Shown here piece after piece: positions 7,060 through 44,474 of a DNA stretch of 64,000 nt. How positions within the stretch are numbered: the first letter of the stretch is position 1; each line of letters opens with the position of its first letter. A program made the translations under genes and the position numbers. This stretch comes from Gemmatimonadota bacterium (GTDB taxonomy: Bacteria > Gemmatimonadota > Gemmatimonadetes > Palauibacterales > Palauibacteraceae): contig JBHHYJ010000003.1 of NCBI GenBank assembly GCA_046757485.1, positions 14,866 to 78,865 of the forward strand. Reading direction: 5' to 3'. The notes under the pieces are model-generated. The model was given only the letters and a program-made list of their open reading frames with translations. It did not search any database and had not been told where the DNA came from.

Positions 7060-9600
7060 ATGGCGACATCCGAACGCGTGGAGCGAATAGAATCTCGCCT
7101 GCTGGAAGATGAGATGCGGGATTCGTTCATCGACTACTCGATGAGCGTGATCGTGCAGAGGGCATTGCCGGACGTGCGGGACGGGCTGAAGCCGGTGCAC
7201 CGCCGGATCCTGTATGCCATGCACGAGCTCGGCCTGGCGCCCAACCGTCCCTATAAGAAGAGCGCCACGGTCGTGGGCGACGTGCTCGGGAAGTACCATC
7301 CGCACGGCGACGCCGCCGTGTACGACTCTCTCGTCCGCATGGTACAGGAGTTCTCGCTGCGCTATCCCCTCGTGGATGGCCAGGGGAACTTCGGCTCCGT
7401 CGACGGGGACAGCGCGGCCGCCTACCGGTACACCGAGGCCCGCCTGGCGCCGATCGCCATGGAGATGCTGGCCAACATCGAGAAGGACACGGTCGGCTTC
7501 GCGCCCAACTTCGACGATCAGCGCCGCGAGCCGACGGTGCTGCCGGCGACGCTCCCGAACCTCCTCGTCAACGGCTCGTCGGGGATCGCGGTGGGGATGG
7601 CCACCAACATCCCGCCCCACAACCTGCGGGAGGTCGTCGCGGCGTGCGAGCGGCTCATCGAGGATCCCGAAGCGCGGGTCGAAGAGCTCGCGGAGCTGGT
7701 GCGGGGTCCGGATTTCCCGACCGGGGGGTTCGTCTACGGCACTCAGGGAATCGAGCAGGCGCAGCGTACGGGTCGCGGTCGCATCGTGATGCGAGCTCGG
7801 ACCCACTTCGAGGAGCGCGAAGGGGGCCGGGAGCGGATCGTGGTCACCGAGATCCCGTTCATGGTGAACAAGGTCCGGCTCATCGAGCAGATCGCCCAGC
7901 TCGTGCGCGACAAGAAGGTGGACGAGATCGCCGACCTGAGGGACGAGTCCGACCGGGACGGAATCCGCCTGGTGATCGAGCTGAAGCGAGACGTCATCCC
8001 CGAGATCGTCCTCAACCAGCTGTACAAGCACACCCAGATGCAGTCGACCTTCGGGGCGATCATGATCGCCCTGGTGGACGGCGTTCCGCGGGTCCTGAAC
8101 CTGAAGGAGATGCTCCAGCACTTCGTGGAGCACCGCCATGACGTGGTCGTGCGACGGAGCGAGCACGATCTCGGGGTGGCCAGGGACCGGGAGCACGTCC
8201 TGGAGGGCCTCAAGGTCGCGGTCGACAACATCGAAGAGGTGATCGAGATCATCCGCGAGGCCCGGGACGCGAAGGTGGCGGGCGATCGTCTCCGGGAGCG
8301 GTTCGAGCTCACCGAGCGTCAGTCCGAGGCGATCCTGAACATGCGTCTGGCCCGCCTCACCGGGCTCGAGATCGAGAAGCTGGAGGAGGAGCTGGAGGAG
8401 GTGCGGGCCGAGGTGAAGCGGTTGGAGGAGATCCTCGGCTCGCGGGCGCTCCGCATGCAGATCGTCCGCGAGGAGCTCCGGGCGGTGGCCGACAAGTACG
8501 GGGACGTGCGGCGCACGGAGATCCTGGATGTCCGGGCGGAGCTTACGGAGGAGGACCTGATCGCCGAGCAGTCGATGGTGATCACCGTGAGCCACGCGGG
8601 CTACATCAAGCGCATTCCCCTGGACGTGTACCGGCAGCAGCGGAGGGGAGGGCGGGGGATCGCGGGCATGGAGACGAAGGAGGAGGACTGGGTGGAGCAC
8701 CTCTTCCTGGCCTCGACCCACGATTCGCTCCTCATCTTCACGGCGGACGGCCAGGTCTATGTCCTGAAGGTGTACGAGCTTCCGAGGGCGGGTCGAACGG
8801 CTCGGGGGAAGCCGATCGTGAACCTGATCCCCGTGCACAAGGAGGATGTCATCGCGGCCGTCCTTCCGGTCAGGGAGTTCCGCGAGGATCGCTACCTGCT
8901 GTTCGCCACGCGGAACGGCCAGGTCAAGAAAACGAGCCTGGCAGAGTACGTGAACGTTCGTTCTCCCGGGATCAACGCGATCAACGTGGTGGGCGACGAC
9001 CGGCTCATCGAGGTGCAGCTCACCGACGGGACGAACGACGTGATCCTGGCCACCCGGAACGGCATGGCGATCCGCTTCCCGGAGTCGGACGCGCGTCGGA
9101 TGGGCCGGGTCACACAGGGCGTGCGGGGCGTGAATCTCGAGGAAGGGGATGAGGTGGTGGGCATGGTCGTCGTTCGCCGGGAGGCGAGCTTGCTGACGGT
9201 CACGGAGAGGGGGATGGGGAAGCGGACGCGGGTCGGCGAGTACCGCCCCCAACGCCGCGGCGGGAAGGGGCTCATCAACCTGCGGATCACCGAGAGAACC
9301 GGGCGGGTGGTCGCGGCAAGGGAGGTGGCGGATGAAGATGAGATCATCCTCGTCACCCGAAACGGAGTCATCAACCGCCAGCGGGCCGCGGAGATCCGGG
9401 TCATCGGGCGGAACACACAGGGAGTGCGCCTCGTGAACCTGGACGATGGGGATGAAGTCGTGGACATGGCTCGCGTGGTGACCGAGGAGGAGGCGGCCGC
9501 GGCGGCGGAGGCTCCCGGAATCGGACCCGGCGACACGAAGCCTGGCGCCGCCGCAGCTTCCGCGGAGGGAGCGGGACGGGCGGGCGGGGAGCGGGAGTGA
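7060..9600 (+). CDS. gyrA: DNA gyrase subunit A
   Basis: Start at ATG 7060 ([49 protein letters not shown]). [19 protein letters not shown], catalytic Tyr region [10 protein letters not shown], GyrA box QRRGGRG. Confidence 0.97.
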
Positions 9601-35148: not shown

Positions 35149-36258
35149 ATGACGGGATTCGGCCGGTTCTTCCTTCCCGGTCCCACCGAGGTGAGGCCGG
35201 AGGTGCTGGAGGCTCTGAGGCGTCCCGCGATCGGGCACCGCAGCGCGGAGATCGTGGAGCTCATCGAGGGGATGAAGCCGCGGCTCTCGGCCCTCTTCCG
35301 GACGGAGCGCCCCGTCTTCCTCTCCACCTCCTCCGCCACCGGGATGATGGAGGCGGCGATCACGAACCTCAGCCGCCGGCGCGTCCTGTGCCTCGTGTGC
35401 GGGGCGTTCAGCGAGCGGTTTCGGCAGATCGCCGAGGCGTGCGGCCGCCCCGCCGACGCGCTGGAGACCGAGTGGGGCGAGCCGAGCCGGCCCGAGGCGC
35501 TTCGGGAGCGTCTCGCGGCGGAGCCGGGGCGATACGATCTCGTCACGGTCGTCCACTCGGAGACCTCGACGGGGGTCCTGAACCCGGTGGCCGAGCTGGC
35601 CGCGGTCGTGCGAGAGCAGGAAGGGCTGCTCCTGGCGGTGGACACGGTCTCCTCCCTGGCCGGGGCCCCCGTGCTGACCGACGATTGGGGGCTGGACTTC
35701 GTTCTGACGGGAGCCCAGAAGGCGCTCGCCCTGCCACCCGGCCTGGCGCTCGCCGTCGCCTCCGAGCGCGCCCTGGGGCGCGCCCGCGAGGTGGAACGCC
35801 GGGGTTTCTACTTCGATCTGCTGAAGTTCGAGCGGCAGATGGAAAGGTCCCAGACACCGAACACGCCGTGCGTGTCGCTGTTCTTCGCCCTGGATCGCCA
35901 GCTGGCCAGGATCGAGGCCGAGGGCCTGGAAGATCGCTGGCAACGGCACGAGGCCATGGCCCGCCGCACCCACGCTTGGGTCGAGGAGGTCGCCGCGAGG
36001 ACGGGCCGGCCGTTCCGGGTCCTGGCCCCGGAGGGCTATCGGTCGCCCACCGTGACGGCCGTCCGGCTGCCGGACGGCCTGGAGGGGCCGTCGGTGGCGG
36101 CCCGCCTGGGCGAGCGAGGGTACACGGTGGCTCCCGGGTACGGGAAACTGCGGAGGGATGGCATCCGGATCGGACACATGGGGGACCACACTCCGGCGGA
36201 GCTGGAAGAGCTTTTGGGCGTGTTGGGCGACGTGCTGGAGGAGGCGTTGGCGGCGTGA
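35149..36258 (+). CDS. class-V aminotransferase (serine-glyoxylate / phosphoserine aminotransferase-like)
   Basis: MTGFGRFFLPGPTEV..; PLP-lysine context TGAQKALALPPG; 369 aa. Directly upstream of serA. Confidence 0.85.
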   Translation: MTGFGRFFLPGPTEVRPEVLEALRRPAIGHRSAEIVELIEGMKPRLSALFRTERPVFLSTSSATGMMEAAITNLSRRRVLCLVCGAFSERFRQIAEACGRPADALETEWGEPSRPEALRERLAAEPGRYDLVTVVHSETSTGVLNPVAELAAVVREQEGLLLAVDTVSSLAGAPVLTDDWGLDFVLTGAQKALALPPGLALAVASERALGRAREVERRGFYFDLLKFERQMERSQTPNTPCVSLFFALDRQLARIEAEGLEDRWQRHEAMARRTHAWVEEVAARTGRPFRVLAPEGYRSPTVTAVRLPDGLEGPSVAARLGERGYTVAPGYGKLRRDGIRIGHMGDHTPAELEELLGVLGDVLEEALAA

Positions 36259-36278: not shown

Positions 36279-38027
36279 ATGGCGGAGAGGGCGGAGAGGG
36301 CGGCGGGGCCCGCGGTGAGCGACGGGGTGGAGGGCGACGCCGCGGCCACGGCCCGGCGGGTGGTCCTGGCGGACCCCCTGTCGGACGAGGGCCTGGCCGT
36401 GCTCCGCGAGTCGCCGGGGCTGGAGGTGGTGGACCTGTCCGCGGAGGAGCGGGCCTCCCTCATGCACTCCCTGGGCGGGGCGTCGGCGCTCATCGTGCGG
36501 AGCCGCACGCGGGTCGATGCCGCGCTTCTGGATGCGGCGGAGGCACTGGAGGTCGTGGGACGGGCGGGGGTCGGGGTGGACAACATCGACGTGCCGGCCG
36601 CGACCCGCCGGGGGATCGCCGTGCTGAACGCCCCGGGCGGAAACACCCGCTCGACGGCCGAGCTCACCTGGGGGCTGATCCTCGCGGCGGCTCGCAAGAT
36701 CGCCGCGGCGGACCGCTCGATCCGGGCCGGCCGCTGGGAGCGCAAGGCCCTGCGCGGGGTGCAGCTGCACGGAAAGACCCTGGGTGTCGTGGGTGCGGGC
36801 AGGATCGGCTCGGCGGTGGGCGCCCGGGCGCGGGCGTTCGGAATGCGCGTGCTGGTCCACGATCCGTACCTGACTCCGGAGCGGGCCGCCGAGCTCGGGC
36901 TGGAGCGGACCGAGCTGGATGCGCTGCTCGCCGAGTCGGACGTGGTGACCCTCCACGTGCCGCTCACGGAGGTCACCCGCGGGATGATCGGCACCGCGGA
37001 GATCGAACGGATGAAGGCGGGGGCGTTCCTGGTGAACGCGGCCCGCGGGGGACTCGTGGAGCAGCGCGCCCTGGCGGAAGCGCTGGGCTCCGGCGAGCTG
37101 GCCGGTGCCGCCCTGGACGTGTACGAGATGGAGCCGCTGCCCCCCGAAGATCCGCTGCGCTCCGCACCGAACCTGGTCATGACGCCCCACCTGGGCGCGG
37201 CGACGGGAGAGGCACAGCGGGAGGTGGCGGTGGAGATCGCGGCGGCCGTGCGGGATGCCCTTCTGCTCGGCGACTACCGCACCGCCGTGAACGCGCCGTA
37301 CGTGGAGCCGGGGGAACGTCGGCTCCTGGACCCCGTGATGGAGCTGGGGCGGCGGCTCGGCACGCTGCTGGCCGCCCTCACGGACGGGCCGTGCGGGAAG
37401 CTGGAAGTCCGGTACGGCGGCTCCGTTCGGAACGTGCTGCGGCCGCTGGCGGCGGCCGCTCTCGAGGGCTACCTGCGCCCCACGGTGGACCGCCATCTGA
37501 ACGTGGTGAACGCTCTGTCGGTCGCGTCGGAGCGGGGAATCCAGGTCGGCCGCGTGCGGCTGGGCGAGCCGCCGGACTACTCGAACTACGTGGAGGTGGC
37601 GGCGGCCTTCGGAAGCGGGGAGGCCGAGGGAGGGGAAGCTTCCCGTTCTCGGGCTCCGCGCTCCGGCGACCCGTCGAGCTCGCCCGCCCGGACCCCGGAG
37701 GGCGAGGCCGTCGTCGGGGGGGCGCTGCTGGGAGAGGGACAGCACCCGCGCATCGTGCGCATCGGAGAGTTCCACGTGGACACGGTCCCGGACGGAGTGC
37801 TGCTCCTGGTGAGAAACCGGGACGTGCCCGGAGTGATCGGCCAGGTGGGGACCGGACTGGGTGCCGGGAAGATCAACATCGCCGAGTACCACCAGGCCCG
37901 CCGCGAGGCCGGGGGAGATGCGCTCGGGGTCATACGGGTGGACGGCCGCGTGCCGGCCGAGGTGCTTGCCGTCCTCCGGGCGCTGGCGGCCGTCCAGGAG
38001 GTGCGGCAGGTCGAGTTTCGGCGCTGA
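36279..38027 (+). CDS. serA: D-3-phosphoglycerate dehydrogenase (long form with ASB and ACT domains)
   Basis: Start at ATG 36279. NAD loop GVVGAGRIGSAVG, NAARGGLV, TPHLGA, C-terminal ACT (LLLVRNRDVPGVIGQVGT). Confidence 0.93.
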   Translation: MAERAERAAGPAVSDGVEGDAAATARRVVLADPLSDEGLAVLRESPGLEVVDLSAEERASLMHSLGGASALIVRSRTRVDAALLDAAEALEVVGRAGVGVDNIDVPAATRRGIAVLNAPGGNTRSTAELTWGLILAAARKIAAADRSIRAGRWERKALRGVQLHGKTLGVVGAGRIGSAVGARARAFGMRVLVHDPYLTPERAAELGLERTELDALLAESDVVTLHVPLTEVTRGMIGTAEIERMKAGAFLVNAARGGLVEQRALAEALGSGELAGAALDVYEMEPLPPEDPLRSAPNLVMTPHLGAATGEAQREVAVEIAAAVRDALLLGDYRTAVNAPYVEPGERRLLDPVMELGRRLGTLLAALTDGPCGKLEVRYGGSVRNVLRPLAAAALEGYLRPTVDRHLNVVNALSVASERGIQVGRVRLGEPPDYSNYVEVAAAFGSGEAEGGEASRSRAPRSGDPSSSPARTPEGEAVVGGALLGEGQHPRIVRIGEFHVDTVPDGVLLLVRNRDVPGVIGQVGTGLGAGKINIAEYHQARREAGGDALGVIRVDGRVPAEVLAVLRALAAVQEVRQVEFRR

Positions 38028-38100
38028 GCGGACCCCCACCAGACGGGCGGCCGCGGCGGTGCTCCGGTGATCCCGGTGAGAGGCCGGCGACGGCCTCGGT

Positions 38101-39015
38101 CTACCCCGGCCGCCACACGGCCGCCGCGTCGGGGGCGGGCGGCTCCACCGCCTCCGGGTGCAGCAGGCCGGCCAGGATCTCGACCCCGGCCACCACGCGG
38201 GGCCCGGAACGGTTGAAGTAGGAGGAGGCGTCGACCACGAAGGCTCGCTCTCCCCGCACCGCCCGGGAGGCGATCTCCAGCAGCCGTTCCGCGTGCGCGT
38301 CGGCGTCCCGGCGCGCCGCCTCCAGGTGGTAGCCGCAGGGCATCACCACGAGCACGTCGGGGTCCAGGTCCCGCAGCGCCTCCCAGGGGAGCTCCCGGGA
38401 GGGGGCCCCGGCGTCTCCGAGGAGGTTCTCGCCCCCTGCGATCTCCACCATCTCCGGTACCCAGTGTCCGGGGGCGAACGGGGGATCCAGCCACTCCACG
38501 GCCAGGACTCGGGGTCTGGCGGCACCGGCCACGGCGCTCCGGACGGCGTCGAGCCGGTCCCGGAGCCGGATCAGGACGTCGTCGGCCTGCCCGGCGGCCC
38601 CGGCGGCCCGCCCGACCTCGAGGAGGGAGCCGAGGATCTCCTCGATCGTGTGGGCATCGAGGGAGAGGACCCGGGCCTCGAGCGCCCGACGCTGGACGAT
38701 CTCCTCCACTCCGGCCGCCGGCACGGCACACACCTCGCACACGGCCTGGGTCAGGATGAGCTCCGGGCGGAGCTCGGCGAGGAGCGCCTCGTCCACGGCG
38801 TACACGCTTCCGTGCTCGGCCATCGCCCGGCGGACCGCCCGGTCGACCTCGCCGCTGGACAGGCCCTCCGGGTCGAAGACGGGACGGCTCACCCGGGGGC
38901 GGTCCAGGATCTCGGGCGGGTGGTCACACTCGTGGGAGATCCCCACCAGCCGCTCCTGGAGCCCCAGGGCGAAGAGCATCTCCGTGCCGCTGGCCAGCAG
39001 GGAGACGACGCGCAC
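38101..39015 (-). CDS. BtuF/FhuD-type (class III) substrate-binding-protein homologue without a signal peptide
   Basis: MRVVSLLASGTEMLFALGLQERLVGISHECDHP.. matches the periplasmic-binding-protein-2 fold pattern but begins directly with the first beta-strand. No ABC permease or ATPase nearby. Confidence 0.75.
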   Translation of the reverse strand: MRVVSLLASGTEMLFALGLQERLVGISHECDHPPEILDRPRVSRPVFDPEGLSSGEVDRAVRRAMAEHGSVYAVDEALLAELRPELILTQAVCEVCAVPAAGVEEIVQRRALEARVLSLDAHTIEEILGSLLEVGRAAGAAGQADDVLIRLRDRLDAVRSAVAGAARPRVLAVEWLDPPFAPGHWVPEMVEIAGGENLLGDAGAPSRELPWEALRDLDPDVLVVMPCGYHLEAARRDADAHAERLLEIASRAVRGERAFVVDASSYFNRSGPRVVAGVEILAGLLHPEAVEPPAPDAAAVWRPG

Positions 39016-39050
39016 GGCTCAGCTGCCGGGCGGGCGGCGGGCCGCCACCC

Positions 39051-40508
39051 TCAGTAGGTGGGCATCTCGGGATCGATCTCCTGGGCCCAGGCCAGGATCC
39101 CACCCCGCAGGTTCACCGCGTTCGTAAAGCCGATGCTGCGCAGATAGGCCACCGCCCGGGCGCTCCGGCCCCCGGATCGGCAGTGGATGACGAGCTCTCC
39201 CTCGCGATCGATCTCCTCCGCGCGCTCGGGGACTTGGTCGAGGGGGATGAGCCGCGCGCCGGCCAAGCCCAGGTTGCAGATCTCCCACTCGTACGGCTCT
39301 CGGACGTCGATGAGCTGGAGCGGGGCTCCGTTCTTCAGCTTGGCGCTCAGCTCCGCGACATCGATCTCGGGCACCGTCTCTTCCTCCTCTTCCTCCCTCC
39401 CGACGCCGCAGAAGAGCTCGTAGTCGATCAGCTCGGTCAGGGTGGGCTCGTCGCCGCAGACGGGGCAGTCGGGGTCGCGGGCGATCTTGACCTCCCGGAA
39501 CTCCATGCGCAAGGCGTCGAGGAGCAGGAGTCGACCCACGAGAGGGTCGCCGATCCCCAGGATCAGCTTGACCGCCTCGGCCGTCTGGATCGTCCCCACG
39601 ATCCCCGGCAGCACCCCCAGCACGCCCGCGTCCGCGCAGCTCGGGACGAGGCCGGCGGGAGGGGGCTGCCGGAAGAGGCACCGGTAGCAGGGCCGACCCG
39701 GCAGGCCGAAGACGGAGACCTGCCCCTCGAAGCGGAAGATCGCCCCCCAGACGGTCGGAATCCCCAGAAGCACGGCCGCGTCGTTCACCAGGTAGCGGGT
39801 CGGGAAGTTGTCGCTCCCGTCCACGACCAGGTCCCAGCCTGTGAAGACCTCGAGCGCGTTCTGCGAGTCGAGTCGGTTCTCGTACGTGACGATCTCCACC
39901 TCGGGGTTCAGCGCCTCGAGGCGTCGGCGGGCGGAAGCGAGCTTGGACTCGCCCACCGCCTCGGTGTCGTGCAGCACCTGTCGCTGGAGGTTCGTGAAGT
40001 CGACCGCGTCATGATCCACGATGCCGATGCGGCCCACGCCGGCCGCCGCCAGGTAGAGGCCGAGGGGAGATCCGAGCCCGCCCGCCCCGATGAGGAGCAC
40101 GCGGGCCGCCTTGAGCTTCTGCTGGCCCTCCACGCCGACCTCGGGGATCATCAGGTGCCGGCTGTAGCGCTGGAGCTCCTCGGGGCTCAGCTCGGCGGCC
40201 GGAGACGAGGCGTCCGGGCGGGTCGCGGAGCGCCCTCCGGCGATGGAGGGGACGATCCGCAGCTCGCCTCCCTCCGGGAGCCGGGCCTCCTCCGGGCTCA
40301 GCTCGCGGAGGTTGCGCTCGCCCACGTACACGTTGACGAACCGGCGCAGCTCGCCGTCTTCGTCGTACAGCTGGGCTCGAAGCGGCTCGTTCTCCTCCGT
40401 GAGCCGTTCCAGCGCCTCGCCCGCCGACGAGGCCTCCACCTCCACCCGCGACCGCCCGTCCACGAAGGAGCGCAGCGGCGTGGGGATTCGGACCGTCACC
40501 TTCGCCAT
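39051..40508 (-). CDS. tripartite fusion: MoaD/ThiS/CysO-like sulfur-carrier domain (ends ..SIAGG) + MoeZ/MoeB-type E1 adenylyltransferase + rhodanese
   Basis: Residues 1-92 have a beta-grasp carrier pattern ending in GG. Then YSRHLMIPEVG, GAGGLGSP, CYRC and CPVC zinc pairs, and PSCADAGVLG. The C-terminal rhodanese has the CRSGGRS loop. SD GGAGGAAGG lies upstream of the ATG. Confidence 0.9.
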   Translation of the reverse strand: MAKVTVRIPTPLRSFVDGRSRVEVEASSAGEALERLTEENEPLRAQLYDEDGELRRFVNVYVGERNLRELSPEEARLPEGGELRIVPSIAGGRSATRPDASSPAAELSPEELQRYSRHLMIPEVGVEGQQKLKAARVLLIGAGGLGSPLGLYLAAAGVGRIGIVDHDAVDFTNLQRQVLHDTEAVGESKLASARRRLEALNPEVEIVTYENRLDSQNALEVFTGWDLVVDGSDNFPTRYLVNDAAVLLGIPTVWGAIFRFEGQVSVFGLPGRPCYRCLFRQPPPAGLVPSCADAGVLGVLPGIVGTIQTAEAVKLILGIGDPLVGRLLLLDALRMEFREVKIARDPDCPVCGDEPTLTELIDYELFCGVGREEEEEETVPEIDVAELSAKLKNGAPLQLIDVREPYEWEICNLGLAGARLIPLDQVPERAEEIDREGELVIHCRSGGRSARAVAYLRSIGFTNAVNLRGGILAWAQEIDPEMPTY

Positions 40509-40656
40509 GTCGATACCTTCCTCCGAGATGGGTCCGGGCTCGGGGCACCTTGCCCCGCCCGCCGTTTTCCGAGCCTGTCCTGTCCGCCGCCACCACGCCT
40601 GTCCGCCGCCGTGACGCCCAACCGCCGCCCGCCGGGACGGGGCTTCTCCGACGTCC

Positions 40657-41124
40657 TCAACCGATCCGCACGGGACGCTCGACGAACGTGCCTTCCTTCA
40701 GCTTCCAGACGCGCCCGTCCCGGGCCCGGCCGCGGCTCACCTCGACGATCAGGTAATGATACCAGGGCCAGGCGAGCTTCCGGTCCGTGGCCGAGGGCAC
40801 CGGCCTCGCGTCGGGGTGGGAGTGGTAAAAGCCGAGCACCTTCGGCCCGCCGGCCTCTTCCTCCTCCAGAAGACGGCGGAGCGTTTCCGGGTCCAGCCGG
40901 TAGCGGTCGTTCCGTCCCGGCCATCGGTTGGCCGACGCTTCCAGGCGGGTGACGCGCCGCTCCTCGCCCTCGAGCCTCCCGAGCAGCACCCCGCACGCCT
41001 CGCGGGGGTACGCGCGCGCCAGCTCCTCACGAACCCGGGCCAACAGCCGACCCGGGATCACCAGGCTGTCGCCGGGAGCCGGCGACGGAGCGACCTCTCC
41101 GCCCGGGCTCACTTGCTCCACCAC
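40657..41124 (-). CDS. mec: JAMM/MPN+ metallopeptidase (Mec+-like)
   Basis: Conserved Glu (REACGVLLG) and HSHPDARPVPSATD (HxHx7Sx2D). Overlaps the cysM stop by 16 nt. Confidence 0.85.
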   Translation of the reverse strand: MVEQVSPGGEVAPSPAPGDSLVIPGRLLARVREELARAYPREACGVLLGRLEGEERRVTRLEASANRWPGRNDRYRLDPETLRRLLEEEEAGGPKVLGFYHSHPDARPVPSATDRKLAWPWYHYLIVEVSRGRARDGRVWKLKEGTFVERPVRIG

Positions 41125-42098
41125 GGGCCGCCCAGGTACCGGGTGCCGGCATCCGGGAGCACGGGGACGATCGTGCCGTGCTCGAGCCGGGCCGCCACTC
41201 GCAGGGCGGCCGCATAGGCGGCGCCGGACGAGGGCCCGACCAGGAGCCCCGCCTCCCGCGCGAGCCGCACGGCGTGCTCCTGGGCCTCCTCCGTGGCCAC
41301 GCCGAGCCGCTCGTGCGCCACGCTGTCGTCATAGATCGCGGGCCGGAGCGCGGTCTCCATGTGCTTGAGCCCCTCGAGTCCGTGCAGCGGTTCCGCCGGC
41401 TCCACGGAGACGATTCGCACGGTGGGCCGGAGCTCCCGCAGCCTTCTCCCCGTCCCGACCAGCGTGCCGCTCGTCCCCAGGCCGGCCACGAAGTGGGTCA
41501 ACCGGCCACGGGTCTGGGCCCAGATCTCCGTCGCCGTGCCGAGGTAATGGGCTCTCCAGTTCTCCGCGTTCGCGTACTGGTCGGCGTACCAGAAGCGCCG
41601 CGGATGGGCGGCCGCCAGGCGCCGCGCCCGCTGAATCGCTCCATCCGTCCCCTCCAGCGGATCGGTGAGCACCAGCTCCGCGCCGTACGCCCGGAGGGTG
41701 CCCAGGCGCTCCGGGCTCGCGTTGGCGGGCAGGCAGAGAGTGACCGGGAATCCGATCGCCGAGCCCAGCCACGCGTAGGCGATCGCCGTGTTTCCCGAGC
41801 TCGCATCCAGGAGTCGCCGTTCGGGCAACATGCCCTCGCGAAGCGCCCGCCGGACGATCCGCCAGGCGGGACGATCCTTGACCGAGCCCCCCGGGTTGAA
41901 CCACTCCGCCTTCCCCAGGATCCGGACCCGCGGGCCCGGGGATGGGAGCGGGAAGAGCGGCGTGCCGCCGATCCGCTCCACCAGCGCGCGCGCCGTCGGC
42001 CCCAGCCCGAGGCCGGCCGCCTCATCCCGCCGGGCGCCGAAGGTCGTCCGCGGGGTTCCGCCCATCCTAAGAGGCTGTGTCCTCTTCTCCATGCTCAT
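41109..42098 (-). CDS. cysM: PLP-dependent cysteine synthase, CysM type
   Basis: GGSVKDRPA PLP-lysine motif, GNTAIAYA, GTSGTLVG. 329 aa; the start may be the second ATG, 2 codons downstream. Confidence 0.9.
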   Translation of the reverse strand: MSMEKRTQPLRMGGTPRTTFGARRDEAAGLGLGPTARALVERIGGTPLFPLPSPGPRVRILGKAEWFNPGGSVKDRPAWRIVRRALREGMLPERRLLDASSGNTAIAYAWLGSAIGFPVTLCLPANASPERLGTLRAYGAELVLTDPLEGTDGAIQRARRLAAAHPRRFWYADQYANAENWRAHYLGTATEIWAQTRGRLTHFVAGLGTSGTLVGTGRRLRELRPTVRIVSVEPAEPLHGLEGLKHMETALRPAIYDDSVAHERLGVATEEAQEHAVRLAREAGLLVGPSSGAAYAAALRVAARLEHGTIVPVLPDAGTRYLGGPWWSK

Positions 42099-42134
42099 CC
42101 GCCCTCGGCAAGACCCACGCGCGCGGCCTCCTGC

Positions 42135-42152
42135 GGTTCTTCAACAGGCTTC
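42135..42152 (+). repeat. 18-nt intergenic motif GGTTCTTCAACAGGCTTC, copy 2
   Basis: Exact copy of 2933-2950. Lies between the leader terminator and the cysM start codon. Confidence 0.6.
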
Positions 42153-42163
42153 CAGGGGAAACG

Positions 42164-42193
42164 AAAAAGGCCGCGAGCCGGAGCTCGCGGCCT
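42164..42193 (-). terminator. intrinsic terminator in the cysM leader
   Basis: On the minus strand: AGGCCGCGAGC-TCCG-GCTCGCGGCCT followed by TTTTT. A perfect 11-bp stem about 65 nt upstream of the cysM ATG and about 285 nt downstream of the rpe stop. Confidence 0.7.
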
Positions 42194-42218
42194 GCGCCGC
42201 ATCCGGTGAAACACCGAG

Positions 42219-42329
42219 CTACGGCCGGCTTGCCGCGGGCTCCCCGCTCGAGGGGAGGGTACAAGCGCACGGACACCGGGGGCGGAACGCCCCGCGACCG
42301 GTCGGCTCGCTCTGGCGGCAACGGCTCAC
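42219..42329 (-). promoter_or_regulatory. candidate Cys-codon-rich leader peptide ORF (attenuator) upstream of cysM
   Basis: SD AGAGGA, 5 nt, GTG, then a 36-codon ORF VSRCRQSEPTGRGAFRPRCPCACTLPSSGEPAASRP ending 25 nt before the terminator stem. It has 4 Cys codons, 3 of them within 5 codons (TGT CCG TGC GCT TGT). 30 of 36 codons end in G/C. Confidence 0.35.
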
Positions 42330-42364
42330 GACGATCCTCTTCTTCAGGTGTGTCGGTGCGATCC

Positions 42365-42437
42365 CTCCCGGGCCGAACCTGTCTGTGTACGCGGAGGATC
42401 GGAGAAAGGTTCCGGCAAAGGGGGGGCGGCCCGGGAG
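42365..42437. other. long imperfect GC-rich hairpin downstream of rpe
   Basis: Outer arms CTCCCGGGCC/GGCCCGGGAG (10 bp, perfect). Inner arms CCGAACCT/AGGTTCCGG (one bulge). 73 nt in total. Confidence 0.5.
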
Positions 42438-42478
42438 CGCTCCGAGTATGCGACCCGCTCGCGTTCTGTGGCCGCCTG

Positions 42479-43165
42479 CTACAGCCGGACGGCGAGGGAG
42501 CGACGCAGCGCCTCCAGGTTCTCCTCGACGGAGCCCGAGCCCCGAAAGACGGAGGATCCCGCCACGAGGACCGAGGCGCCGGCCTGCACCGCCAGCGGGG
42601 CCGTCTCCGGGTCGATCCCGCCGTCCACCTGCACGTGGAGCTGTCGCAGGCCGAGCTCCGCCGCCACCCGCCGGACCTCCTCCACCTTGCGCAGCGCCGC
42701 ATGAATGAACGCTTGCCCCCCGAAGCCGGGGTTCACCGTCATCACGAGGACCAGATCCACCAGCGGAATCACTTCGTGCAGGGCGGATACGGGCGTGGCG
42801 GGGTTGATCGCCACCCCGGCCCGGGCCCCGAGACGACGGATGTCGGTGAGATCACGGTGCAGGTGGATCGATGCCTCCTGGTGGACGGTGAGGAGGTCCG
42901 CCCCCGCATCGGCGAACGCGCCCAGCAGCCGATCGGGACGTTCGATCATGAGGTGGACGTCCAGGAACCCTTCGGTCGCGGGTCGCAGCGAGCGAACCAC
43001 GGGAAGCCCGACGCTGATGTTCGGAACGAAGTGGCCGTCCATCACGTCCACGTGAATCCAGTGCTCCCCGGCCGCCTCGACCTCGGCCACCTGCTCGCCC
43101 AGCCGCGTGTAGTCGGCCGCCAGGATGGAGGGGGCAATGAGCGTTCCCTCGGGCATCACCCGCAT
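42479..43165 (-). CDS. rpe: ribulose-phosphate 3-epimerase
   Basis: APSILAADYTRLGEQV..HVDVMDGHFVPNIS..; 228 aa, colinear with Rpe. Confidence 0.95.
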   Translation of the reverse strand: MRVMPEGTLIAPSILAADYTRLGEQVAEVEAAGEHWIHVDVMDGHFVPNISVGLPVVRSLRPATEGFLDVHLMIERPDRLLGAFADAGADLLTVHQEASIHLHRDLTDIRRLGARAGVAINPATPVSALHEVIPLVDLVLVMTVNPGFGGQAFIHAALRKVEEVRRVAAELGLRQLHVQVDGGIDPETAPLAVQAGASVLVAGSSVFRGSGSVEENLEALRRSLAVRL

Positions 43166-43247
43166 CGTACGTACTCCTCTCTCAGAGCGTCGGTGGCCAT
43201 CGAGCCGACCCGACGGCCTCGAGGCCCGGATCCGCGGCGACTTCGAG

Positions 43248-44474
43248 TCAGATCACTCCCAACCGCTTGCCCACCGTGTCCAGCGCGTCCAGCGTGCGGT
43301 CCAGGTGCTCCCGATCATGTCCGGCCGAGACCTGGCACCGGATGCGCGCCTGCCCCTTCGGGACGACCGGGTACCCGAACCCGATCACGAACGCTCCCTC
43401 CTCCAGGAGCTGGGTGGAGAGGGAGATCGCCGTGGCCGTCTCGCCGACCACCACGGGGACGATCGGGGTCTCCCCCTCGATCGGCCGGTAGCCGAGGCGG
43501 GCGAGCTGCTCCCGGAAGTAGGCCGTGTTCTCGCGGAGCTTGGCCACGCGCTCCGGATGCGACTCGAGATGATCGATCGCCGCCAGGGCGCCGCACGCGG
43601 AGTGGGGTGGAATCGCGTTCGTGAAGAGCTGCGTGCGTGAGCGCTGGACCAGGTACTCCACGACCTCCCGGCTGCCGGCGGTGAAGCCACCCGCCATTCC
43701 CCCCAAGGCCTTTCCCAGGGTGGAGGTGACGACGTCCACCTCCCCGTGGATCCCGAAGTGCTCGGGCGTACCGCGGCCCGTTTCGCCCAGCACGCCCGTG
43801 GCGTGGGAGTCGTCGATCGCCATGACCGCGTCGTACCGGTCGCACAGGTGGCGAATCTCGACCAGCGGCGCGATCTCCCCCTCCATGCTGAAGATCCCGT
43901 CGGTGATGACGAACCGGTGCCGGGCGTTCCCGGACTCCTTCAGGGCGTCCTCCAGAGAGTCCATGTCCATGTGCCGGTAGATCCTCCGCCGGGCCTTGCA
44001 GAGACGAATCCCGTCGATGATGGAGGCATGGTTCAGCTCGTCGCTGATGATCGCGTCCTCCTCGGAGAGAAGCGGCGCGAACAGGCCCTCGTTGGCGTTC
44101 CAGCAGGAGGTGTACGTCAGGGAGGCGGGCATCTCCAGAAAGTCGGCGATCCGGTCCTCCAGCTGCCGGTGGATGTCGAACGTGCCGCAGATGAAGCGCA
44201 CCGACGAGGTGCCGGCTCCGTACCTGTCCACTCCCTCCCGGACGGCGCTCATGACGTCCGGCTCGTCACACAGCCCCAGATAGTTGTTCGAGCACAGGTT
44301 CACGACCTCGCCGTGCCCCTCCAGCTTCACCACGGCGGACTGGCGACCCAGGATGTGCTGGAGCTCCTTGTACACCCCGCGCTCGTGCATCTCCCGCAGC
44401 TCGGCGGCCAGTCTCTCCTGCAGCCCCCGGTTGCCGTCACGCGTCGCCACTTCGGATTCCTGATAGAGGGTCAT
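43248..44474 (-). CDS. kbl: glycine C-acetyltransferase (2-amino-3-ketobutyrate CoA ligase)
   Basis: Start at ATG 44474 (MTLYQESEV..). NNYLGL, PLP-lysine context TLGKALGG. Operon with tdh. Confidence 0.93.
   Translation of the reverse strand: MTLYQESEVATRDGNRGLQERLAAELREMHERGVYKELQHILGRQSAVVKLEGHGEVVNLCSNNYLGLCDEPDVMSAVREGVDRYGAGTSSVRFICGTFDIHRQLEDRIADFLEMPASLTYTSCWNANEGLFAPLLSEEDAIISDELNHASIIDGIRLCKARRRIYRHMDMDSLEDALKESGNARHRFVITDGIFSMEGEIAPLVEIRHLCDRYDAVMAIDDSHATGVLGETGRGTPEHFGIHGEVDVVTSTLGKALGGMAGGFTAGSREVVEYLVQRSRTQLFTNAIPPHSACGALAAIDHLESHPERVAKLRENTAYFREQLARLGYRPIEGETPIVPVVVGETATAISLSTQLLEEGAFVIGFGYPVVPKGQARIRCQVSAGHDREHLDRTLDALDTVGKRLGVI

Follow-up and report, generated by a model that had tools for sequence, protein, structure and literature searches.

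Introduction

How can a sulfur carrier be activated at its C-terminal glycine if it is synthesized with that glycine in the middle of a longer polypeptide? This question is raised by a gene in a 64,000-nt stretch of DNA from a Gemmatimonadota bacterium (assembly GCA_046757485.1, contig JBHHYJ010000003.1; the entire stretch is referred to below as the window). The gene encodes, in one open reading frame (ORF), a CysO-like beta-grasp sulfur carrier, an adenylating E1 enzyme and a rhodanese domain, and it is preceded on the same strand by genes for a JAMM zinc peptidase and a cysteine synthase. The Gly-Gly of the carrier is internal in the primary translation product and, as a peptide-bonded glycine cannot be adenylated, a release step is needed. 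This argument had been put forward in an initial annotation of the locus and is chemically sound.

The three genes probably represent a module for thiocarboxylate-dependent cysteine synthesis of the CysO/MoeZ/CysM/Mec+ type, its carrier being produced as a pro-protein in fusion with its own E1. The catalytic motifs of all four activities are intact, carrier and E1 are synthesized as a single chain, and the operon is conserved. The predicted release of the carrier by the JAMM before adenylation is well supported by comparison. The initial annotation had also suggested profile searches of the three segments of the fusion and of the JAMM ORF, a structure prediction for the N-terminal segment and a survey of relatives for split and fused cysO/moeZ genes, which are reported here.

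Results

A Sulfur Carrier Is Continued in Frame Into Its Own E1

All three core ORFs are encoded on the minus strand, a detail absent from the initial annotation (Table 1). The fusion ORF had been described there as beginning with a carrier module of about 92 amino acids that ends in a diglycine and as running without a stop through a short linker into a complete E1; both features were found where they had been placed. Residues 85-92 read IVPSIAGG, residues 93-107 read RSATRPDASSPAAEL, and the N-terminal helix of the E1, LSPEELQRYSRH, follows. The profile searches returned matches for every segment, i.e., ThiS, ThiF and Rhodanese for the fusion and Prok-JAB for the JAMM ORF.

The carrier module aligns end to end with the CysO structure 4n6e_B (E = 2e-11) and with Mycobacterium tuberculosis CysO (3dwg_C, E = 3e-8), and in both alignments Gly91-Gly92 of the fusion falls on the C-terminal Gly-Gly of CysO. 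The Pfam ThiS model is matched over residues 6-92 by a narrow margin (23.1 bits, gathering score 22.5), and the NCBIfam SAMP1 model over residues 11-92 with E = 1.3e-10, below its curated cutoff. An AlphaFold2 model of the fusion, built on 33 homologs with a mean predicted local distance difference test (pLDDT) score of 85.5, shows a confident beta-grasp over residues 1-88 with strands and helices in the order of that fold (block-mean pLDDT 81-95 for residues 1-80). The values fall below 50 for residues 89-102, which comprise the carrier tail and linker, and the E1 and rhodanese domains are again modeled confidently.

The E1 domain matches Pfam ThiF over residues 115-350 with 269 bits. All E1 motifs listed in the initial annotation can be read in the protein (GAGGLGSP, the zinc pairs CYRC and CPVC, and the PSCADAGVLG loop), along with the arginine helix RYSRH. 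Residues R114, R117, G141-G146, D165, C274, C277, C291, C348 and C351 are invariant in 33 sequences. In NCBIfam, the domain scores above threshold on MoeB NF006444 (468.5 bits, cutoff 449) and also on the subfamily model NF004281 (311.8 bits, cutoff 266), fails the MoeZ equivalog model NF005902 (487.1 bits, cutoff 647) and scores 339 bits, below the curated cutoff, on the model of the SAMP-activating UbaA. The modeled E1 superposes on MoeB (1jw9_B) with a template modeling score of 0.96 and a root-mean-square deviation of 1.4 Å. A Foldseek search of the PDB with the full fusion model retrieved only E1 enzymes (MoeB, ThiF, Uba4) and no solved fusion between a ubiquitin-like protein (Ubl) and an E1. 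The rhodanese domain, identified previously by its CRSGGRS motif, matches the Pfam model over residues 384-476 with 58.4 bits; in its active-site loop (C443-RSGGRS), C443, G446, R448 and S449 are invariant.

The start of the fusion gene is marked by an ATG codon with a ribosome-binding site, GGAGGAAGG, located 7 nt upstream (40516-40524). No ATG, GTG or TTG occurs between codons 63 and 119, and the linker holds no ribosome-binding site for an independent E1. The first start-type codon past the linker is Met120, which lies downstream of the invariant R114/R117 helix. Consequently, a free carrier or an intact E1 would be obtainable only by proteolysis.

The In-Frame Fusion Is Genuine

It could be argued that the in-frame arrangement merely reflects a sequencing or assembly error that removed a stop codon or shifted the frame after the Gly-Gly codons. 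Split relatives with a single in-frame stop between the two genes do exist (for example loci L005, L009, L053 and L062 of the survey described below), and there one base error could mimic a fusion. This explanation is contradicted by the nucleotide-identical fusion gene in the Logan assemblies of two separate runs (SRR29324611 and SRR29324609), by the lack of start signals for a separate E1 in the linker, and by the homologs. A search of 5.8 billion protein clusters yielded at least 120 clusters of full-length fused homologs; those listed have 97-100% coverage, lengths of 471-526 aa and 57-76% identity to the window protein, and are named from Gemmatimonadota, Acidobacteria, Firmicutes and Betaproteobacteria metagenome-assembled genomes (MAGs). 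The motif P-[SA]-[IVL]-A-G-G, with the E1 helix RYxR[HQ] further along the chain, is present in 120/120 homologs listed, and 44 species representatives carry fused genes. As the in-frame arrangement is kept in hundreds of genomes, chance is no issue, and an artifact can be excluded for practical purposes. Many soil bacteria carry the fused form, and the family is already present in public databases, usually under the name MoeB, and some JGI names list all three domains.

An Invariant Diglycine Lies Beside a Freely Varying Linker

Conservation along the fusion protein is very uneven. Over the 120 listed homologs, identity to the window protein amounts to 93% for residues 85-92, 52% for the rest of the carrier and 73% for the E1, and drops to 14% for the linker. 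The latter varies in length between 1 and 53 aa (median 16), with Ala, Gly, Pro and Glu as abundant residues. The residue following Gly-Gly is likewise variable (A, R, S, G, T, V and others), and no conserved Cys, Ser or Thr was found after Gly-Gly among these homologs. An invariant AGG beside a freely varying linker is predicted for a site of cleavage and activation and not for a docking domain. The lack of constraint on the following residue fits recognition of the Ubl by a JAMM rather than a sequence-specific protease.

Fused and Split Loci Coexist Across Phyla

One scan of the GTDB species representatives, with an alignment of fused proteins as query, identified 80 loci, which were classed by following the carrier frame as far as its stop codon. 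Both of the forms that the survey was meant to distinguish were found: 44 loci are fused (41 complete, three cut by contig ends) and 32 are split, the remaining four being E1-rhodanese genes that lack a carrier, JAMM or CysM in their vicinity. The carrier gene of the split loci lies upstream of and adjoins the E1 gene, except in L074, where about 1.1 kb separate the two. The fused loci span at least eight phyla, among them Gemmatimonadota, Acidobacteriota (several classes), Eisenbacteria, Bacteroidota, Chloroflexota, Verrucomicrobiota, Elusimicrobia and Armatimonadota, and were also found in MAGs labeled Cyanobacteriota and Heliomicrobium and in four Thermoplasmata archaeal MAGs. In the Thermoplasmata-labeled MAGs (L017, L041, L058, L073), a cluster of cysM, JAMM and fused carrier/E1 genes was identified whose fusion is 52-54% identical to the protein of the window; these clusters would stem either from inter-domain transfer or from contamination during binning. 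At the Acidobacteriota locus L045, tblastn revealed a second rhodanese-like segment downstream of the first (7105-7419 and 7818-8126), which points to a variant of the fused protein with tandem rhodanese domains.

A second carrier gene was found neither within about 6 kb of any of the 44 fused loci nor in the 64-kb window, which together delimit the reach of this search. The finding bears on the possibility that the fusion is never cleaved and that its beta-grasp stays on the E1 for good as a docking, regulatory or chaperone-like domain, the true carrier being encoded elsewhere. A precedent exists in the Ubl-ThiF operons described by Iyer et al. (2006; PMC1779556), which also encode a standalone ThiS and for which a different role of the fused domain was inferred. 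In the present case, the fused domain is no distinct Ubl family but aligns with CysO over its whole length as an ortholog, no part of the carrier module is better conserved than its AGG tail, and in near relatives a standalone gene for this domain occupies the corresponding position. A permanently attached domain is thus improbable.

The split loci revealed a further feature of the carriers. Only four of them (in L038, L053, L055 and L074) end directly at AGG, whereas 28 of the 32 run 1-14 residues past the Gly-Gly, with C-termini such as AGGMY, AGGD, AGGNGDR, AGGAGNKRAR, AGGSSCCR, AGGCARRCICR and AGGNAVPPNRRAQG, each followed by a stop codon. In this clade, trimming of the C-terminus thus seems to be the general case and the fusion its extreme form. 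Many standalone CysO-like carriers of the clade were also observed to carry Cys-rich tails after Gly-Gly; besides AGGCARRCICR and AGGSSCCR, these include AGGRPLRCACS and tails ending in CCCCCCL, ACACYCPCRMNA and ACCRSKHLAR (L052 6001-6294, L050 692-985, L039 2207-2488; proteins P0145, P0158, P0175 and P0185). Such a Cys-rich pro-peptide could serve in metal binding, in holding a persulfide or as a recognition tag.

A search for the carrier domain over 1.84 billion cluster representatives gave a related picture. Among the best 150 of the 50%-identity representatives, 14 end at Gly-Gly, 53 continue for a further 1-20 residues and 24 lead into an E1; another 44, left unclassified, have longer tails, many of them resembling fragments or frame errors, and 15 lack the motif. 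This search is poorly suited to counting fusions, as full-length fusions are merged into few clusters at 50% identity and fragments from contig ends are numerous among the matches.

In several split loci, a lone in-frame stop separates the carrier from an E1 start located within a few codons (L005 6276-6283, L009 6276-6292, L053 2093-2106, L062 6273-6310), so that a one-base change would fuse or split the genes. In a neighbor-joining tree of the E1 domain with 81 tips, the fused, split and E1-only states interleave, with roughly 20 changes of state, a rough figure from a tree without support values. The simplest reading is that trimming by the JAMM is the ancestral maturation step and that later fusion or fission was nearly neutral. 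If trimming was already needed, the loss of the stop between cysO and moeZ would cost nothing, which would lead to the repeated alternation of fused and split forms among relatives.

The JAMM and Cysteine Synthase Genes Are Conserved Neighbors

Forty of the fused loci offer at least 2.5 kb of upstream sequence and could be judged for their context. A JAMM gene lies just upstream on the same strand in 38/40, counting L044, where it overlaps the start of the fusion gene. A cysteine synthase gene is present upstream of the JAMM in 34/40 judged fused loci and in 21/28 split loci. The order cysM, JAMM, carrier/E1 is the conserved core of the system.

This arrangement also bears on which enzyme releases the carrier. 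Alternatively to the JAMM, a housekeeping protease or autocatalysis might do so, the JAMM then hydrolyzing only the carrier-cysteine adduct in the manner of Mec+. Such a division of labor would be in line with the mycobacterial MoaX, whose cleaving enzyme is unidentified and which Escherichia coli cuts at the wrong position (PMC4326299), with the two judged fused loci that lack an adjacent JAMM, and with the presence of Mec+ in M. tuberculosis although its CysO already ends in Gly-Gly. On the other hand, the JAMM adjoins the fusion even in four loci where, for want of a CysM in the vicinity, it cannot serve locally to hydrolyze the adduct, and JAMMs cut linear Ubl fusions or C-terminal extensions in every such system that has been tested (PMC8832034, PMC5925218). 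The unconstrained residue after Gly-Gly and the lack of a conserved Cys, Ser or Thr that might support self-cleavage point in the same direction. A route through another protease is less economical than one through the JAMM, and we regard it as unlikely.

The JAMM of the window was located directly upstream of the fusion gene, as had been annotated. Its motif E...HxHx7Sx2D is intact (EACG...HSHPDARPVPSATD), it reaches 90.5 bits on the NCBIfam desampylase model (cutoff 130), and it aligns with 2kcq (E = 6e-15) and with Pyrococcus furiosus JAMM1 (5ld9, E = 5e-9). The designation of the first gene as “CysM-type” stands only in part: membership of the CysK/CysM family and the SVKDR motif were borne out, but a specific tie to CysM, in mycobacteria an O-phosphoserine-dependent enzyme, was not, as the protein stays below the cutoff of the cysM model TIGR01138 (292.9 bits, cutoff 394.2) and matches M. 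tuberculosis CysK1 (189.9 bits) better than E. coli CysM (183.6 bits) or M. tuberculosis CysM (161.9 bits) in the PDB.

The thiocarboxylate might also be destined mainly for products other than cysteine, for example molybdopterin, thiolated tRNA or other thiolated compounds, or a conjugation of the SAMP/TtuB/Urm1 type with the JAMM as deconjugase. The match of the E1 to the MoeB model, its UbaA score, the match of the carrier to SAMP1, that of the JAMM to the desampylase and the four fused loci with a JAMM but no CysM would all be compatible with such an output, and M. tuberculosis MoeZR is described as serving both molybdenum cofactor and cysteine synthesis (PMC3227635). Against this, CysM, JAMM and carrier/E1 are encoded on one strand in most fused and split loci, the carrier is closest to solved CysO proteins, the conserved core contains no gene for MoaE, MoaA/C, ThiG or a tRNA thiolase, and the SAMP, UbaA and desampylase scores all remain under the curated cutoffs. 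As an additional role, an output of this kind is possible; as the actual function of the module, it is quite unlikely.

Genomic Context in the Window

Table 1. Positions of the fusion gene, its segments and the surrounding elements in the window.
Feature	Position	Strand	Evidence and remarks
Whole fusion ORF: carrier, linker, E1, rhodanese	39051..40508	(-)	485 aa + stop; start ATG
CysO-like beta-grasp sulfur-carrier module, residues 1-92	40233..40508	(-)	ThiS profile, CysO alignment, AlphaFold2 model
Gly91-Gly92 codons (gga ggg); predicted scissile bond after Gly92	40233..40238	(-)	Sequence, homologs, CysO alignment
Linker, residues 93-106, RSATRPDASSPAAE, 14 aa	40191..40232	(-)	Low pLDDT, 14% identity
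ThiF/MoeB/MoeZ-type adenylating E1, residues 107-370	39399..40190	(-)	ThiF profile, MoeB superposition
Rhodanese domain, residues 384-485	39054..39359	(-)	Profile match; Cys443 codon 39180-39182
148-nt spacer between JAMM and fusion gene	40509..40656	(-)	Repeat pair and ribosome-binding site
JAMM/MPN+ zinc peptidase	40657..41124	(-)	Prok-JAB 83.5 bits (cutoff 25); 155 aa
Cysteine synthase (CysK/CysM family, pyridoxal phosphate (PLP) fold type II)	41109..42098	(-)	PALP 218 bits, GGSVKDR lysine motif; 329 aa
Terminator-like hairpin between rpe and cysM	42168..42193	(-)	11 pairs, 9 G-C; T-rich tail, 7 T in 10 nt
Ribulose-phosphate 3-epimerase (rpe)	42479-43165		Upstream of cysM

The cysM and JAMM ORFs share a strand and overlap by 16 nt, and together with the fusion gene they are inferred to form one transcription unit. 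The spacer in front of the fusion gene holds two exact copies of GGCGGCGGACAGG (40579-40591 and 40598-40610 on the minus strand), 19 nt apart; across the window, this element has five matches with at most one mismatch, compared to 0.9 expected. The repeat pair may mark an operator or an internal promoter region. Folding of the spacer RNA gave no unusual structure (z = +0.52), an Rfam scan of the whole window identified no riboswitch or structured leader and no match in the spacer, and a promoter scan found no sigma-70-like site, although such a scan says little at 72% G+C. The hairpin upstream of cysM is the sole terminator-like site in positions 37900-43400 (5.5 kb), a weak signal given that about one is expected by chance, and probably marks the upstream boundary of the operon.

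Several further genes surround the operon. A Peripla_BP_2 (BtuF-like substrate-binding) protein of 304 aa is encoded at 38101-39015 (-), beginning 36 nt past the fusion stop; it starts with MRVVSLLASGTEMLFALG, shows no obvious signal peptide and may be co-transcribed with the fusion, and it was not found beside the operon in other species. Two genes on the plus strand converge on the operon: a class-V aminotransferase (35149-36258), which is weakly serC-like (88.6 bits, far under the cutoff), and a bona fide phosphoglycerate dehydrogenase SerA (36279-38027; 549.6 bits, cutoff 454). Genes of the phosphoserine pathway are thus found beside a cysteine synthase that possibly uses O-phosphoserine. 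This synteny is shared only with L044 and partly with L055 and is probably lineage-specific. The rpe, Peripla_BP_2, SerA and aminotransferase genes were considered as parts of the system and rejected, as their synteny is not conserved across species.

Discussion

Proposed Mechanism

In the proposed pathway, a single 485-aa chain is synthesized in which the carrier (residues 1-92), the linker, the E1 and the rhodanese follow one another, as given by the sequence. The neighboring JAMM would then recognize the folded beta-grasp together with the PSIAGG tail and cut after Gly92, leaving, on one side, a carrier whose Gly-Gly carboxylate is free and, on the other, an E1-rhodanese with a short, disordered stub at its N-terminus. 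By analogy with its family, the E1 would adenylate Gly92, and the persulfide of Cys443 would turn the acyl-adenylate into a thiocarboxylate. The conserved operon suggests that the cysteine synthase adds this thiocarboxylate to a PLP-aminoacrylate intermediate. After an S-to-N acyl shift, the same JAMM would hydrolyze the carrier-Cys adduct, yielding cysteine and recycled carrier. The steps from adenylation to hydrolysis of the adduct are carried over from the mycobacterial pathway, in which Mec+ hydrolyzes CysO-Cys, as reported in the work of the Begley laboratory.

A number of observations weigh against this model. Two fused loci, L033 and L054, have no JAMM within 2.5 kb, and L019, L035, L044 and L060 have a JAMM but no cysteine synthase nearby, so that a CysM does not accompany the module everywhere. 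The cysteine synthase of the window is not demonstrably an ortholog of M. tuberculosis CysM, judging from its sequence scores, and the passing of the MoeB and not the MoeZ model by the E1 makes molybdopterin or other thiocarboxylate chemistry possible. With the 148-nt gap in front of the fusion gene, its co-transcription with the two upstream genes is presumptive. Finally, literature searches found no experimental study of a carrier-E1-rhodanese fusion.

An extension of the model concerns the E1 itself, whose arginine helix begins just 1-53 residues after the Gly-Gly. The fused carrier might act in cis as a pro-domain, its tail occupying or blocking the adenylation site of the E1 dimer until the JAMM cuts; we consider this idea doubtful. 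If it were true, the E1-rhodanese would be a proteolytically activated zymogen, and one regulated cleavage, triggered for example by the sulfur or redox state, would switch on the thiocarboxylate pathway, making this a prokaryotic E1 gated by the processing of its own Ubl.

Implications

The existence of carrier precursors and their release by JAMMs is an established principle, which was predicted in 2006 and shown for related fusions. No concept is overturned by the present findings, and a specialist will not be much surprised by the fusion. Literature searches retrieved no description of a carrier-E1-rhodanese fusion in a CysM/JAMM operon or of its prevalence. What appears to be new are the residues past Gly-Gly in 28 of the 32 split carriers, by which trimming looks like the norm of the clade. 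The default picture of CysO-type carriers outside the actinobacteria would change accordingly, since most of them would be pro-proteins, either extended or fused.

The fusion offers a compact bacterial model of ubiquitin-precursor-style maturation, with one chain, one JAMM and one bond after Gly92, and could show how prokaryotic JAMMs recognize a Ubl together with a linear peptide bond. There is also a practical consequence for annotation. Naming the fusion “MoeB” hides the carrier gene, and a thiocarboxylate-dependent route to cysteine may be overlooked when metabolism is reconstructed for Gemmatimonadota, Acidobacteriota and other soil phyla.

Comparison With Known Systems

The closest known system is the mycobacterial CysO/MoeZ(R)/CysM/Mec+ pathway, which comprises the same four protein types: a carrier ending in AGG, an E1-rhodanese, a PLP-dependent cysteine synthase and a JAMM. 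MoeZR acts with CysO in the thiocarboxylate route (PMC3227635). M. tuberculosis has an unlinked moeZ and a CysO that terminates at Gly-Gly, whereas here the carrier and E1 form one polypeptide, the E1 is part of the operon and the gene order is cysM-JAMM-cysO/moeZ. The cysteine synthase of the window is, in addition, no closer to M. tuberculosis CysM than to CysK1. The operon type consisting of ThiS/MoaD, E1-rhodanese, JAB and cysteine synthase was listed by Iyer et al. (2006), who also proposed JAB cleavage of fused ThiS/MoaD (PMC1779556).

A carrier made with residues past Gly-Gly and a JAMM encoded in the same cluster link the present system to the pairs QbsE/QbsD, CxnE/CxnF and HcyS/HcyD. 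The last of these, from methionine synthesis in Wolinella, comprises a JAMM-trimmed sulfur-carrier precursor. In thioquinolobactin synthesis, QbsD removes two residues after the Gly-Gly of QbsE, and in the chuangxinmycin pathway the proposed role of CxnF is to take ten residues off CxnE ahead of adenylation by MoeZ; in carriers of this type, the cluster-encoded JAMM is needed to expose the Gly-Gly carboxylate before E1 adenylation (PMC5925218). In these systems, the extension amounts to 1-10 disposable residues, whereas here it is a functional enzyme of 393 residues, the carrier's own E1. Consequently, the predicted cleavage would mature two proteins at once.

An internal carrier Gly-Gly fused to a partner enzyme is also known from MoaX of M. 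tuberculosis and DR2607 of Deinococcus radiodurans. In MoaX, which joins MoaD to MoaE, cleavage takes place between Gly82 and Ser83, and blocking this step renders the protein inactive (PMC4326299). The D. radiodurans JAMM DR0402 cleaves the MoaD-MoaE fusion and thereby exposes a C-terminal Gly, and HvJAMM1 and P. furiosus JAMM1 cut linear Ubl fusions whatever follows (PMC8832034). In MoaX and DR2607, the partner is the sulfur acceptor MoaE and the pathway leads to molybdopterin, in contrast to the activating E1 and the presumed cysteine output of the present fusion. The protease of MoaX is, moreover, not encoded alongside, whereas here a JAMM adjoins.

Ubl-E1 fusions as such have been described before. 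Makarova and Koonin (2010) mention Ubl-E1-TBP fusions in Thaumarchaeota (PMC2948915), and in the Ubl-ThiF fusions of the Campylobacter type a Ubl family distinct from ThiS occurs with a solo ThiS alongside and no JAB; the role inferred for it was not that of a carrier (Iyer et al., 2006; PMC1779556). In contrast, the fusion described here contains a CysO ortholog with an invariant AGG, has no solo carrier nearby and an adjacent JAMM, and its E1 carries a rhodanese domain.

A further parallel is with the eukaryotic precursors of ubiquitin and other Ubls, in which the Gly-Gly is peptide-linked to a downstream protein and a peptidase has to release the modifier before E1 activation. As in polyubiquitin and the fusions of ubiquitin to ribosomal proteins, the Gly-Gly of the carrier is here joined by a peptide bond to a functional protein downstream. 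The eukaryotic ubiquitin precursors are processed mainly by cysteine-protease deubiquitinases, whereas the presumed processor of the present fusion is a JAMM; its partner is the E1 itself, and its output would be sulfur transfer instead of protein tagging.

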